DNA from: a plasmid
Direction: 5' to 3' (one strand)
NCBI RefSeq assembly: GCF_054482525.1
Contig: NZ_JBTHVG010000008.1
Length of the DNA: 5,891 nt
Positions 762 through 3,682 of the stretch are shown here, piece by piece; the stretch's first letter is position 1, and every line of letters begins with the position of its first letter. A program made the translations under genes and the position numbers. The notes beneath the pieces are model-generated. The model did not search any database. It saw only the letters and a list, made by a program, of their open reading frames with translations, and was not told where the DNA came from.

Positions 762-966
762 AACCATGAAAAATGGCAGGTTCATTGGATTAAGGCGGAC
801 TAATGTGCTCTGTGCCATCTGGTTGCATAGGTATTCATACGGTTAAAATTTATCAGGCGCGATCGTGGCAGTTTTTCGGGTGGTTTGTTGCCATTTTTAC
901 CTGTCTGCTGCCGTGATCGCGCTGAACGCGTTTTAGCGGTACGTACAAACTGTTGTTATGTTAAAT
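760..966. other. cer-like Xer (XerC/XerD) multimer-resolution site: accessory sequences plus core at 938..966
   Basis: The stretch 846-946 (gcgatcgtggcagtttttcgggtggtttgttgccatttttacctgtctgctgccgtgatcgcgctgaacgcgttttagcggtacgtacaa) closely matches ColE1 cer as I remember it. Core: XerC-arm-like GGTACGTACAA (938-948), central region actgttg (949-955), XerD-arm-like TTATGTTAAAT (956-966). Each arm is one mismatch from the cer arms GGTGCGTACAA and TTATGGTAAAT. Confidence 0.7.
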
Positions 967-988: not shown

Positions 989-1873
989 TTATCCGAAGAG
1001 CAATCCCCAAACACTTTTAGCTACAGAAACAATGGCTTTCTTGGCGACTTTAGCCACTGACGCTATTGGTTTAGGTAGTACGGTGTCTATTATATCATCA
1101 ATAGCTCTATCTACGGTGTCTGCGAACCCGTCCTTTGCCGTTTCTACAATTTCTTTTGTTTTTATTTCGTCTTTTACTTGATGCACCACTCCGCTCTGTG
1201 CTTCCTTTGGGAGCGATCTTACTATTGCCTCCACTAACCTTGAAATGTTATAACCTTCATTCGCAGATACAGATATAACGGGATGTTTGGTAAAACCGAA
1301 TCGTTCTATTAAGTATTCTTCCTTTTTTCTAATATTTATTTGTTGTGAGGGTGATGGTTGGTGTTTTTCTTCATCCCATTCGCGGAATGGCTCAATCTTG
1401 TCGACTTGGTTTAAAACAAACAACACTTTTTCATCACCACCAACTGGTTTTAAAACATTTTTATAAAAGTGCTCATCAGCTGAAAATGCTCGATCATCAC
1501 CTTTAACAACCCAAAGCACCAGATCTAATTCTGGGAGAAGATTTTTATACAACTCTTCATATTCTATATCTTTAGCTTCATTTTCACCTACACCTGGTAT
1601 ATCTATTATTTTAATTGTTCTATCACCAAATGAAATTATTAATTCCTGAACCTTTCTCGTGCATGCTTCTACATCACTCACTGCACATACATTACCTTTA
1701 AAGATAGAATTACATAGGCTGGATTTACCAGCGCCGGTTTTACCCATAATCCCTATTACTGGTTCGTAATTAATAACATTTCTAATTTTGTTATAGACAG
1801 ACTTGCGAATCTCTTTAGGTAGAACATCCACAGCTTCTTTGATTAATTTTATACCTTGCGTATTGTTTTCCAT
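989..1873 (-). CDS. P-loop GTPase of the YfjP/YkfA/YeeP (MMR_HSR1-like) family with C-terminal amphipathic tail, 294 aa from the MENNTQ start
   Basis: The track ORF is 989..1960 on the minus strand. I prefer the ATG at 1873 (MENNTQGIK...): it has a GAGGA about 11 nt upstream and avoids overlap with the upstream gene, which ends at 1909. Motifs read in the translation: G1 GIMGKTGAGKSS, G3 DIPG, G4 NQVD, G5 SVSA. Conserved blocks ELDLVLW, DEHFY and QPSPSQQ resemble the E. coli CP4-prophage GTPases YkfA/YfjP/YeeP as I recall them. The C-terminus (PKPIASVAKVAKKAIVSVAKSVWGLLFG) looks amphipathic. Confidence 0.8.
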   Translation of the reverse strand: MENNTQGIKLIKEAVDVLPKEIRKSVYNKIRNVINYEPVIGIMGKTGAGKSSLCNSIFKGNVCAVSDVEACTRKVQELIISFGDRTIKIIDIPGVGENEAKDIEYEELYKNLLPELDLVLWVVKGDDRAFSADEHFYKNVLKPVGGDEKVLFVLNQVDKIEPFREWDEEKHQPSPSQQINIRKKEEYLIERFGFTKHPVISVSANEGYNISRLVEAIVRSLPKEAQSGVVHQVKDEIKTKEIVETAKDGFADTVDRAIDDIIDTVLPKPIASVAKVAKKAIVSVAKSVWGLLFG

Positions 1874-1908
1874 AGTTACTATTTTCCTCATTTTGTTGTT
1901 CATATGAA

Positions 1909-2343
1909 TTAACGGAAGCTTGTTTTTCTTTCTTCTTTTTCTTCCCCGCATACAGAACATTTGTAATGGCGATAGGTATCAGAACTCCCACTAAGATACC
2001 AATTGTGTCTTTTACCATGAACTCGCTCTGTAAAACATCTCACGCATCTTTCTTTCACATTGCAATAATCATCGACTGCAATTTCAACAAATCTTTCATG
2101 CCTTTCGCCTTCTTGTTCAGCGCCACAGTCGATACACTTTTTTACAGTTGTGCACTTGAAATCGTATTTATAACTTTCCTCTCCGTATTTATGCTGTTCT
2201 TTTTGTATAGTGCGATTGCAGTCAGGGCATAGTTTAGAATATTTACAAGTCTCACCATCAATAAGCTTATAGTTTCCTCCGTGTATACCTACCCCACACT
2301 TAGCCTTGATTGCTGCATTTTTTATGCTATCCCAAAAGCCCAT
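1909..2343 (-). CDS. Cysteine-rich small protein (144 aa) with three tandem CX5CX2C motifs plus a terminal CX2C; putative multi-zinc-ribbon protein
   Basis: ATG at 2343 (minus strand) is preceded by GGGAGA at about 7 nt spacing. The translation has 12 Cys arranged as CKYSKLCPDC, CTTVKKCIDC, CNVKERCVRC and CSVC, spaced about 30 aa apart. It ends 35 nt before the GTPase start, so the two are probably co-transcribed. I recognise no family. Confidence 0.7.
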   Translation of the reverse strand: MGFWDSIKNAAIKAKCGVGIHGGNYKLIDGETCKYSKLCPDCNRTIQKEQHKYGEESYKYDFKCTTVKKCIDCGAEQEGERHERFVEIAVDDYCNVKERCVRCFTERVHGKRHNWYLSGSSDTYRHYKCSVCGEEKEERKTSFR

Positions 2344-2389
2344 GGAAAAATCTCCCTACGATTAGTTGATATAAGTTGAACAATTCATC

Positions 2390-2440
2390 GACATGATTAT
2401 ACACGTATAGTGTGTGGATATATAAAAATGAGTATGGATT
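2390..2440 (-). promoter_or_regulatory. Candidate sigma70 promoter for the Cys-rich/GTPase gene pair (perfect -10 TATAAT on the minus strand at 2396..2401)
   Basis: The minus strand reads ...acgtgTATAATcatgtcg... about 50 nt upstream of the 2343 start codon. The -35 region is AT-rich and weak (TATATA-like). This is an inferred position within a 227-bp AT-rich intergenic gap (2344..2570). Confidence 0.3.
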
Positions 2441-2570
2441 TATGCTCTGTATAATGTTTTTGTTATGTTAAATATAGCGCTGAAAAAGTGGGGGCACTGG
2501 ATAAACTTCGTGTTTTTCCCGCAAAGATAGTATTGGAAAGTCATTGTCTAATTCATCCAAGATAAATATT

Positions 2571-3383
2571 TTACGAATTTGTGAGTTTGCTTGAGATTTT
2601 TATATATTCAGCCTTTATTAACTCATTGCCATATTTTTTCTCGAGTCTTTTAACAATGAAATGACCTCGAGCCATATCTTGATAATAGTCGGTAAACATT
2701 GTGTTTAATGTGGCTCCAGTTAGTGCTCCAATAACGGGAACGACTTGAGCTGCCATTTTTTCCGTAATAACTATACCAAATCTTGTTGCAACTTTTTCTA
2801 TTAACGAAGCTAACCATTTTCCTGTTTGTACTGAAGATGCGTTTTTGACAGCAATGTTAGAAATTTCTTTGGATAAATCTTGTACGATCTCGGCAGTCAA
2901 ACTTCTTGTTGCATAGTATGCAGTATTAGCTGCATCATCGTCATCAGATGGTCCTCCCAAGGAAAACACCTCTAAGCAGGCCAGTTTGGTATCAATATTA
3001 TCTAGCTCAAAACCTTCACTTCTTGCTATGTCAGCAATTGAACGAAGCATAATTGTCGTTGAAACCGGTAACTCAATTGCTAATGCAGAAAAGCCAAAAG
3101 CGCCACCAATGGCTCCAGATACGGCCGCAAAGAATTTATTTGTCTTAGTTGATGCTATTCGGTTAGGTTCATTGTCTAGACTCCATAAGGCCGCATCAGC
3201 AGCTTTGTGGAGCGATTTTTCTACTAGACTATAAATTTGCTCTTCTGCCCCTTTGGGAAGTTTACTCATTAAGTAATCTATTGGGGTTCCAACTAATTGG
3301 GTTAATGTTTCAGTAATTGTATCTTGTTCTAATAATTCTACGGCCCTTTCTAAAGCCCGCAGATCTCCTTCTTCAAGATGCAT
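2571..3383 (-). CDS. EcsC-family-like protein (putative), 270 aa
   Basis: Long minus-strand ORF. Its ATG at 3383 is preceded by AAAGGA at about 9 nt. It has Gly/Ala-rich hydrophobic segments (AAVSGAIGGAFGFSALAIELPVSTTIMLRSIADIARSEGF and VVPVIGALTGATLNTMFTDYY) that I associate with EcsC-family proteins. That assignment is from memory and unverified. Confidence 0.6.
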   Translation of the reverse strand: MHLEEGDLRALERAVELLEQDTITETLTQLVGTPIDYLMSKLPKGAEEQIYSLVEKSLHKAADAALWSLDNEPNRIASTKTNKFFAAVSGAIGGAFGFSALAIELPVSTTIMLRSIADIARSEGFELDNIDTKLACLEVFSLGGPSDDDDAANTAYYATRSLTAEIVQDLSKEISNIAVKNASSVQTGKWLASLIEKVATRFGIVITEKMAAQVVPVIGALTGATLNTMFTDYYQDMARGHFIVKRLEKKYGNELIKAEYIKISSKLTNS

Positions 3384-3536
3384 ATAATGAATCCTTTATG
3401 AATCAATCGATAGTCTACTTTTGTAAGTGATTCGTCTTGGGAGCTTACCTTGAGCGAGTTCAGTGATTCAATAGGCGAGATGCCGACATCATTGTTGTCT
3501 GTGAAGCAGGAGTGATGAAAAGATCAAAGGATCCTC

Positions 3537-3574: not shown

Positions 3575-3682
3575 AAACAAAAAAACCACCGCTACCAACG
3601 GTGGTTTGTTTGCCGGATCAAGAGCTACCAACTCTTTTTCCGAAGGTAACTGGCTTGGTGGAGCACAGATACCAAATACTGT
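3575..3682 (-). ncRNA. RNAI antisense copy-number control RNA (about 108 nt)
   Basis: The minus strand beginning at 3682 reads acagtatttggtatctg..., the RNAI 5' end. It is complementary to the 5' end of RNAII. Its promoter (-35 TTGAAG, -10 CTACACT) lies at 3689..3718 on the minus strand. Confidence 0.85.

Follow-up and report, generated by a model that had tools for sequence, protein, structure and literature searches.

The DNA stretch analysed here, 5,891 nucleotides long and referred to throughout as the window, corresponds at 100% identity to a complete circular plasmid of Klebsiella pneumoniae, pMV-v4-SK2-O-b (NZ_CP085865.1), which is mobilizable, ColE1-type and of MOBP type. Its backbone holds the genes for Rop, MobC and the mobilisation proteins MbeB/MbeD together with RNAI and has a G+C content of 52-60%, as opposed to only 33-41% in a cargo block at positions ~990-3400. 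Three co-directional genes on the minus strand make up this block and encode an EcsC-family protein, a Cys/His-rich protein and a GTPase. The GTPase gene is the subject of this work. A preliminary description, made from the sequence alone, had presented it as a probably active GTPase of the YfjP/YkfA/YeeP family with a C-terminal amphipathic tail that suggested membrane localisation. The coordinates of all features are collected in Table 1.

The open reading frame (ORF) extends from 989 to 1960 on the minus strand, and the Prokaryotic Genome Annotation Pipeline (PGAP) calls positions 989-1873 as a 294-aa 'GTPase' (WP_021551692.1). BLASTP aligned this protein end to end with Escherichia coli K-12 YkfA (42% identity, E=9e-84, residues 3-293 of the plasmid protein) and YfjP (40% identity, E=3e-75, residues 4-293). 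Pfam MMR_HSR1 was matched at 1.1e-16, homologues at E<=1e-5 amounted to 4388 database proteins, and the family comprised 181 clusters at 50% identity with E<=1e-30. On account of these matches and of the full-length alignment with YkfA and YfjP, the ORF is not a chance one. Family models from AFDB50 superposed on the predicted structure with template modelling (TM) scores of ~0.8-0.95 over ~290 columns. One NCBI record in the 90% cluster of the protein is named 'YfjP family GTPase', and relatives in UniProt are called YeeP or NgrB. By sequence comparison, the assignment to the YfjP/YkfA/YeeP (NgrB) family of small TRAFAC GTPases made in the preliminary description is secure. Gene, family label and plasmid are all already present in public databases, and the finding as such is ordinary.

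Family alignments of 121 sequences (for residue conservation, with a threshold of at least 90%) and of 166 sequences (for motif and tail counts) were used to examine the nucleotide-binding site; tail statistics were obtained from 216 members. The G1, G3, G4 and G5 motifs named in the preliminary description were all located and are conserved in these alignments, and the G2 motif (C71-T72-R73), missing from its list, was added. The similarity to TRAFAC GTPases in the profile search (MMR_HSR1) was strong and no conserved G-motif residue was lost. The family versions of the motifs, GKTGxGKS, CTR, DxPGxGE, [NST]QxDK and SA, are all found in the plasmid protein; 'vsa' of G5 is kept in at least 60% of the 166 sequences. 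G3 has a hydrophobic residue at the position of the catalytic Gln of Ras. G4 reads NQVDK, whereas YfjP and YkfA have SQSDK. Outside the G boxes the family motifs Y36xP38, EY105..L108Y109, W121..K.D126.R128, DK159..P162...W166 and P173..Q177 are likewise present, and Y36, P38, N55, Y105, L108, Y109, W121, D126, R128, P162, W166, P173 and Q177, each conserved in at least 90% of the 121 sequences, are all retained. At the level of motifs the GTP-binding site is intact and conserved, and the protein is presumably an active GTPase.

The ORF offers five in-frame ATG codons, at 1960, 1951, 1903, 1891 and 1873, and only the last of them has a Shine-Dalgarno-like sequence upstream. At the start of the alignments, residues 2-3 of K-12 YkfA and YfjP pair with residues 3-4 of the 294-aa form, and the closest homologues begin with MENNSTKG... 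(P0002) and MDNKKGQQ... (P0003). Initiation at 1960 would add MFCMRGRKRRKKNK... to the N-terminus and produce a 52-nt overlap with the upstream Cys-rich gene, in a part where the C-terminus encoded by the latter is conserved among Cys-rich homologues. Based on the homologue N-termini, the sole Shine-Dalgarno-like GAGGA, the overlap with a conserved C-terminus and the agreement with PGAP, we place the translation start at ATG 1873 on comparative grounds, giving 294 aa. The longer starts at 1960, 1951, 1903 and 1891 were discarded in view of the homologue N-termini, the lack of a Shine-Dalgarno sequence and an overlap of up to 52 nt. The preliminary description had put forward ATG 1960 as an alternative. 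The additional N-terminus and the upstream overlap that it mentioned were found, and the ambiguity is genuine in public annotation, which is inconsistent: most records have 294 aa, but WP_001060586.1 (101 contigs) has 304 aa and WP_001214911.1 has 320 aa. Comparison with homologues settles it in favour of ATG 1873. The 35-nt gap to the Cys-rich gene was found as described; it separates the stop codon of the latter (1909-1911) from the GTPase ATG (1871-1873).

Table 1. Features of the GTPase gene and of its surroundings in the window
Feature	Position	Strand	Remarks
Coding sequence, 294-aa YfjP-family GTPase	989..1873	-	stop codon 989-991; same coordinates in PGAP; full-length YkfA/YfjP alignment
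Shine-Dalgarno-like GAGGA	1885..1889	-	11 nt upstream of ATG 1873
N-terminal helices (predicted), residues 2-15 and 20-34	1772..1870	-	AlphaFold2 block-mean pLDDT 80-95
G1/P-loop GKTGAGKS, residues 44-51	1721..1744	-	G44, G47, G49, K50, S51 each at least 90% conserved
G2/switch I C-T-R, residues 71-73	1655..1663	-	C71, T72, R73 at least 90% conserved
G3/switch II DIPGVGE, residues 91-97	1583..1603	-	D91, P93, G94, G96, E97 at least 90% conserved
G4 NQVDK, residues 155-159	1397..1411	-	Q156, D158, K159 at least 90% conserved
G5 S-A-N, residues 203-205	1259..1267	-	inside 'SVSA'
Long C-terminal helix (predicted), residues 240-265	1079..1156	-	AlphaFold2 block-mean pLDDT 93-98
Basic/hydrophobic tail, residues 268-294	992..1072	-	predicted helices 268-287 and 289-293; ends W289..F293
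cer/dif-like Xer site GGTACGTACAA-ACTGTTG-TTATGTTAAAT	938..966	+	directly downstream of GTPase gene
Second Xer-like site	2444..2473	+	degenerate left arm
144-aa Cys/His-rich gene	1909..2343	-	upstream of GTPase gene, travels with it on the plasmid lineage
EcsC-family protein	2571-3383	-	Pfam EcsC 1.8e-31
RNAI	3577-3680		plasmid backbone

The AlphaFold2 model of the protein (mean predicted local distance difference test, pLDDT, 90; predicted TM score, pTM, 0.89) shows two N-terminal helices, a complete Ras-like G domain, two long C-terminal helices and a basic tail with aromatic residues at its end. Both the G-domain fold and the C-terminal helix that were to be looked for in such a model are thus predicted. 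The low pLDDT (<50) of residues 67-71 in switch I is as expected if this switch is flexible. The tail, residues 268-294 (KPIASVAKVAKKAIVSVAKSVWGLLFG, 27 aa), carries a net charge of +5 without a single acidic residue. Its best 18-residue hydrophobic moment is 0.50, compared to 0.29 +/- 0.09 for shuffled versions, 1.6% of which reach 0.50, and its amphipathicity is only moderate.

The C-terminal helical pair followed by a basic tail with terminal Trp and Phe is a feature of the family. YfjP and YkfA terminate in ...SVARAVWDFFF, the plasmid protein in ...SVAKSVWGLLFG. The alternation of hydrophobic and basic residues is kept in the 166-sequence alignment, with W289 found in 96 and F293 in 134 of the sequences. 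The last 27 residues of the 216 members have a median net charge of +3, in 74% of the members two or more of the last six residues are aromatic, and 18 of the 216 possess a hydrophobic segment of transmembrane grade near the C-terminus. Distant members on other small plasmids end in ...KLKFW, ...WFKSWF and ...KKLLSWF. The tail is also found in enlarged members: it stands at the extreme C-terminus after a ~200-aa coiled-coil insert in P0144, after a Gly/Ala-rich hydrophobic (Gly-zipper) stretch in P0170, and is retained as a short tail in P0134, which has a kinase-like domain at its N-terminus. On sequence comparison, the tail is therefore a trait of the whole family including YfjP and YkfA, and does not mark out the plasmid copy. 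The tail given in the preliminary description is present, basic and of membrane type, but it is neither particular to this protein nor more than moderately amphipathic.

Several fusion forms were seen in the family. P0134 (618 aa) is the one with the kinase-like domain, P0170 and P0180 (~700 aa) have large N-terminal helical domains and Gly-zipper C-termini, and P0098 and P0151, both of 409 aa, are listed among these forms as well. In some of them a C-terminal extension of ~110 aa beginning with GGGGGCYITTAVC replaces the usual tail. In addition, a Desulfurivibrionaceae locus (L029) encodes two family GTPases of 293 and 269 aa in tandem (8001-8807 and the next ORF, 48 nt downstream), an arrangement reminiscent of the dynamin-like gene pair of Leo/Eleos.

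Indirect support for a membrane role of the tail, and with it for the membrane localisation proposed at the outset, comes from two published experiments on YfjP. Chromosomal YfjP fused to enhanced yellow fluorescent protein (YfjP-EYFP) was listed among proteins 'associated with the membrane' (Watt et al. 2007, PMC1874593). In a genomic two-hybrid (BACTH) library screened with an RNase E bait, a prey comprising residues 259-287 of YfjP was recovered twice (Göpel et al. 2026, PMC13232886). The bait carried the membrane-targeting helix of RNase E, and most of the other preys were transmembrane fragments (PMC13232886). The YfjP fragment (LIPAPVRTIIQAVRSSVVSVARAVWDFFF) aligns with residues 266-293 of the plasmid protein, that is, with the tail.

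Relatives among other GTPases were sought with a profile of the family. Against PDB sequences, EngA and Era ranked first, with their best stretches limited to the G domain. The match with Irgb10 (E=5.6e-16) covered profile positions 15-249 (235 positions), equivalent to about residues 2-236 of the plasmid protein and taking in only the N-terminal helices and the G domain; Toc33 was matched at 1.4e-13 and Irgb6 at 1.9e-8. Among the 121 members, Pfam matches were obtained for MMR_HSR1 in 119, AIG1 in 102, Dynamin_N in 93, IIGP in 29 (E<=0.001) and Septin in 13. For the plasmid protein, the PADLOC models LeoBC (1e-11) and LeoA (3.7e-9) matched in the G domain only (profile positions 59-237 of 601); as PADLOC yields only such G-domain-level matches, membership of a known defence family was rejected. 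The P-loop GKTGxGKS is of the GIMAP type, and the G3 motif DxPGxGE of the family resembles DTPGxGD of septins. The family is placed in the Era/EngB/septin-like part of the TRAFAC GTPases, leaning to the AIG1/GIMAP, IRG and dynamin-like proteins, and is probably a member of none of these groups. The label 'paraseptin' was not applied to it, this term being kept in the literature for Toc and AIG1/GIMAP proteins.

Neighbourhoods of the family were counted at 61 loci, and a scan of contigs contributed at least 23 loci. DUF932 (YfjQ/YafZ) follows the GTPase gene co-directionally in 31 of the 61, often at less than 100 nt, and a co-directional gene for a YfjR-type helix-turn-helix (HTH)-WYL regulator lies within ~1.6 kb in 30 of them. 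WYL models of PADLOC match the YfjR-type regulators at 5e-34 to 9e-20. In an E. coli relative whose 90% cluster has 1092 member sequences (P0047), a YfjR-like regulator is encoded 39 nt upstream of the GTPase. Two loci (L045, 6691-8903; L044, 6694-8900) have an array of three genes, for an HTH-WYL-WCX regulator, a 134-135-aa protein and the GTPase, with overlapping or abutting frames. Their GTPases are 64-66% identical to the plasmid protein and the arrays are situated inside integrase or recombinase islands; the 134-135-aa acidic helical protein gave no family match. This array is a candidate regulated operon of the family. As a separate observation, ~340 nt upstream of the GTPase gene of Citrobacter koseri (L012, 9368-9658) a 96-aa protein is encoded that has CPQC...CCDC zinc-ribbon halves and a central Gly-zipper segment and is possibly membrane-active.

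Conflict systems occur near chromosomal copies of the GTPase gene: RnlAB and AbpAB on CP4-57, McrBC and a type I restriction-modification system in C. koseri, BREX and CbtA/CbeA in E. coli, and elsewhere GmrSD, a TIR protein and UvrD-type helicases. Members of the family are also carried by 67 of the 72,556 plasmids in PLSDB, several of which are small, such as a 4.8-kb Col156 plasmid, a 5.1-kb Aeromonas plasmid (where the gene adjoins CcdAB) and a 10.8-kb Acinetobacter plasmid (between VapBC and BrnTA). On small plasmids, family members thus lie beside toxin-antitoxin modules or among few genes, without any partner in common. Carriage on a small mobilizable plasmid, stressed in the preliminary description, was borne out but is not unusual in view of these 67 plasmids. 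No match was found in 50,697 curated phage genomes, and 36 matches in IMG/VR look like CP4-type islands with DUF932 and the WYL regulator downstream; a phage origin was rejected. An integrase island with DUF932 and a WYL regulator downstream is the typical, though not defining, context of the family. Neither DUF932 nor a YfjR-type WYL regulator is encoded on pMV-v4-SK2-O-b, and the GTPase gene has no universally conserved partner.

Taken together, we consider it rather probable that the 294-aa protein starting at ATG 1873 is a self-contained, nucleotide-switched peripheral membrane GTPase of mobile elements. GTP binding would act as the switch, and the G domains would probably pair into a dimer, as they do in the related septin, Toc, GIMAP, IRG and dynamin proteins. 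Nucleotide binding or dimerisation would then expose or pair the C-terminal tails, each of which would bind membranes weakly, and the exposed tails would attach the protein reversibly to the inner membrane. We hold a nucleotide-switched peripheral membrane protein, with G-domain dimerisation being probable, with moderate confidence. The biological role may lie in conflicts between mobile elements, phages and hosts, with the protein serving as a one-gene module that a mobile element would use against phages, other elements or its host; on chromosomal islands the gene often belongs to a co-directional cluster with the YfjR-type HTH-WYL regulator, which is absent from the plasmid. This role is proposed with low confidence because of the genomic context, the WYL regulators and the anti-phage role of the related Leo-type dynamin pair, whose defence against phages is proven and depends on its P-loops (bioRxiv 10.1101/2022.05.11.491447).

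A number of observations speak against this reading. The literature search yielded no biochemical or genetic test of function for any member of the family, members being named there only as island genes of unknown function, and deletion of yfjP had no striking phenotype in persister resuscitation (bioRxiv 10.1101/2021.04.10.439273). The defence and candidate families of PADLOC provided no match to the plasmid protein beyond G-domain similarity. The 61 neighbourhoods are heavily weighted to Enterobacterales. In CP4-like islands the GTPase gene is part of the conserved backbone (GTPase, DUF932, YfjR ...) and not of the variable cargo, a position no less compatible with a function for the element itself than with defence of the host. 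As to the membrane, the evidence in PMC1874593 consists of one sentence, and one figure legend of that paper confuses yfjP with yfjB/NadK. The BACTH prey was a fragment (YfjP 259-287) that was not confirmed with full-length YfjP, and a preference of the screen for membrane-localised proteins is suspected by its own authors (PMC13232886). Windows in three other helical segments of the plasmid protein have hydrophobic moments of 0.65-0.70, higher than the 0.50 of the tail. Finally, tail residues 268-293 have pLDDT values of 89-95 in a model with a pTM of 0.89 and AFDB homologues superpose over ~290 columns, so that the amphipathic face of the tail may be packed in a helical bundle rather than free, as judged from pLDDT, pTM and superposition lengths alone.

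These last values would be accounted for by a purely structural C-terminal helix, which closes a bundle with the N-terminal helices in the manner of the bundle-signalling element of dynamins or of mitofusin HD1, in a soluble protein whose amphipathicity is incidental. We regard this explanation as somewhat unlikely, given that YfjP-EYFP was reported to be membrane-associated and that the isolated YfjP tail acts as a membrane prey, that the tail is net cationic with terminal aromatic residues throughout the family, and that some members swap or lengthen it with Gly-zipper segments of transmembrane grade. Moreover, the structural and the membrane readings are compatible if nucleotide binding releases the tail. 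We therefore read the tail as a helix able both to pack on the protein and to bind the membrane, in line with the nucleotide-switched membrane GTPase proposed above.

The backbone position in CP4-like islands leads to a different account, in which the gene belongs to CP4-type integrative mobilizable elements and serves in their transfer or establishment together with DUF932, KlcA-like antirestriction proteins, RadC and CbeA/CbtA, whereas the plasmid copy is a stray passenger with little function. The co-directional DUF932 gene next to the GTPase in about half of the loci (31/61, often at less than 100 nt), followed by YfjR, is in favour of it, as is the designation of YeeP/NgrB as the first gene of a YeeR-YeeV module (PMC6174562, PMC6980539). 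An adjoining DUF932 is, however, lacking in the subgroup to which the plasmid protein belongs (60-77% identity) as well as in all small-plasmid copies, and on 480 contigs or more the GTPase gene is unbroken and hardly varies, unlike a gene in decay. This account appears unlikely to us, and for the plasmid copy we retain a self-contained membrane GTPase.

The immediate neighbourhood on the plasmid suggests yet another possibility, namely that the GTPase and the Cys-rich protein form a dedicated two-gene system, a coupled operon in which a Zn-binding protein would be the sensor or partner of the GTPase. The two genes are co-directional with a gap of 35 nt. The cargo block occurs in 9 PLSDB plasmids of E. 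coli, Salmonella and Klebsiella at >=99.3% identity, so the pair is kept together there at >=99% identity, and both genes lie between two Xer-like sites. The site at 938-966, which we take to resemble cer and dif, looks complete, and the one at 2444-2473 has the same 11-nt right arm and a degenerate left arm. An exact 15-nt repeat, TTGTTATGTTAAATA, is common to the two (953-967 and 2460-2474), and TTATGTTAAAT occurs twice compared to 0.15 expected occurrences. The sites are in direct orientation, 1507 nt apart, and exactly flank the Cys-rich and GTPase genes. Homology of many other ColE1 plasmids to pMV-v4-SK2-O-b breaks off at ~966-974, by the first of the sites. The paired direct sites and this break in homology therefore suggest that both genes constitute a 1.5-kb module moved through Xer recombination. 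A simple cer-cer cointegrate as the origin of the cargo received no support, as homology to an EcsC-only plasmid breaks off with the stop codon of EcsC, ~100 nt away from the second Xer-like site.

Other members of the family also have small unrelated proteins encoded upstream (the 134-135-aa acidic protein and the 96-aa zinc-ribbon/Gly-zipper protein), and in Yersinia a Cys-rich homologue is found ~7.5 kb from a family GTPase, in the same integrase island adjoining smpB. Against a two-gene system, no Cys-rich homologue was detected within 5 kb at the 60 other GTPase loci, the Cys-rich family is tiny (13 clusters, as compared to 4388 GTPase matches), its members stand alone in Mixta (in the mutS-rpoS variable region) and Leclercia, and the exact Cys-rich sequence is present on 897 contigs versus 480 for the exact GTPase sequence in a large protein collection. 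A conserved Cys-rich and GTPase operon was rejected on the grounds that the homologues occur alone and at none of the 60 other loci. The Cys-rich gene is thus an unrelated fellow cargo gene and not a conserved partner. The tight link pointed out in the preliminary description holds for the gap and the common direction, but it is conserved nowhere else (0/60 loci) and is weak evidence for a functional pair; a dedicated two-gene system appears quite unlikely.

The third cargo gene, EcsC, recurs at 91% DNA identity as the principal cargo on many ColE1 plasmids of 3.2 kb and is therefore an independent module. As it is found alone on these plasmids and at none of the 60 other GTPase loci, it was discarded as a partner of the GTPase. 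The EcsC-family protein itself matches the PADLOC candidate single-gene defence family PDC-S29 at 2.7e-10. A scan of the cargo for promoters and terminators gave no minus-strand match under the scan criteria; visual inspection pointed to a candidate promoter of the Cys-rich and GTPase genes, a minus-strand TATAAT at ~2395-2400 with TG in front of it. In the backbone, RefSeq calls a 52-aa 'replication initiation protein' (WP_071529495.1, 3702-3860, minus strand) that is antisense within the RNAII primer region and adjoins RNAI. ColE1-type replication requires no Rep protein, and this call is therefore probably spurious.

That the protein is a ribosome-assembly or translation GTPase like Era, EngA or EngB, by which an element would modulate host ribosomes, we consider very improbable: the '50S ribosome-binding GTPase' label that points to it is merely the Pfam name of MMR_HSR1, scores are far under the NCBIfam equivalog cut-offs (EngA 65.6/306.7 bits, Era 61.3/237 and 55.7/116, YsxC 26.5/124), Pfam found no KH, second G or other RNA- or ribosome-binding domain and the model shows nothing but helices on either side of the G domain, Gly occupies the P-loop position at which the K+-activated Era, EngA and MnmE carry Asn, and the gene is accessory, located on mobile elements and equipped with a membrane-type tail.

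In summary, the reading given in the preliminary description was essentially right, but of the features that it singled out, the tail is shared by the whole family, carriage on plasmids is common and the Cys-rich link is not conserved. As a database object the GTPase matters little, since it is in RefSeq as WP_021551692.1 with the family name already in its cluster, and is found on ~6-kb plasmids sequenced by the hundreds from E. coli, Salmonella and Klebsiella. Its value lies with the family, which has thousands of members on islands and plasmids of Enterobacterales and beyond, three of them in E. coli K-12. The plasmid carries a naturally isolated, stripped-down copy without island regulator or DUF932 and is thereby a convenient test bed. 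The leaning to IRG, GIMAP and dynamin-like proteins, the WYL linkage and the evidence for a membrane tail combine into a testable hypothesis on the function of the family. In its boldest form, which we put forward as a speculation with little likelihood of being correct as a whole, YfjP-family proteins would be small-scale bacterial equivalents of the IRG, GIMAP and dynamin-like immune GTPases, each a single polypeptide of 290 aa in which a GTP-driven switch throws the amphipathic/aromatic C-terminal tail onto the inner membrane, acting as autonomous one-gene conflict modules (abortive infection, exclusion, anti-plasmid activity) that are wired to ligand-sensing HTH-WYL regulators on islands and unregulated on small plasmids. 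A compact membrane-active immune-type GTPase, if true, would broaden the connection of bacterial defence with eukaryotic IRG/GIMAP/dynamin immunity and explain long-standing 'y-genes' of K-12.

Compared with known systems, Era, EngA and EngB are the best matches of the G-domain core by both sequence and fold, and share with the plasmid protein the hydrophobic residue in place of the catalytic Gln. The latter differs in having additional N- and C-terminal helices and a tail, and in being accessory and carried by mobile elements. Membranes are the site of action of the IRG, GIMAP and Toc relatives, whose dimers form via the G domain. IRGs (~415 aa, in three parts) are ~120 residues longer than the plasmid protein, which is without most of their C-terminal helical domain and has no match to Pfam IIGP (PF05049) at E<=10; AIG1 is matched in residues 42-137 only, at 2.6e-07 and thus more weakly than MMR_HSR1. 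Unlike the IRG and GIMAP relatives, the protein is bacterial and without a lipidation site.

The Eleos system (LeoA/LeoBC) consists of two proteins of 560-600 aa with stalk and paddle, whereas a single protein of 294 aa is found here, and the match extends only over the G domain and the flanking helices. NCBIfam LeoA/HP0731 gives 22 bits against a cut-off of 325, and there is no second GTPase gene in the window. The 2026 review PMC13276650 cites Cury et al. 2024 for GIMAPs being eukaryotic homologues of the Leo-type system.

MinD, FtsA and RNase E carry, at or near one terminus, a short cationic amphipathic helix that by itself binds membranes weakly. Their membrane-targeting sequences bear no sequence relationship to the tail described here; it was, however, an RNase E bait with such a sequence that recovered the tail of YfjP (PMC13232886).

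The closest comparison is with the founders of the family in K-12, YkfA (CP4-6), YfjP (CP4-57) and YeeP/NgrB (CP4-44 and pathogenicity islands), which are of similar length (287 versus 294 aa). They reside on integrase islands with downstream DUF932 and WYL regulator, in contrast to the plasmid GTPase on its ColE1-type replicon, which lacks both. The motifs YxP, EYxxLY, WxxKxDDRA, DKxEPxxxW and PSxxQ are common to all of them. The plasmid protein nevertheless belongs to a subgroup separate from these founders, with its nearest relatives (60-77% identity) in Providencia, Edwardsiella, Citrobacter and Klebsiella.

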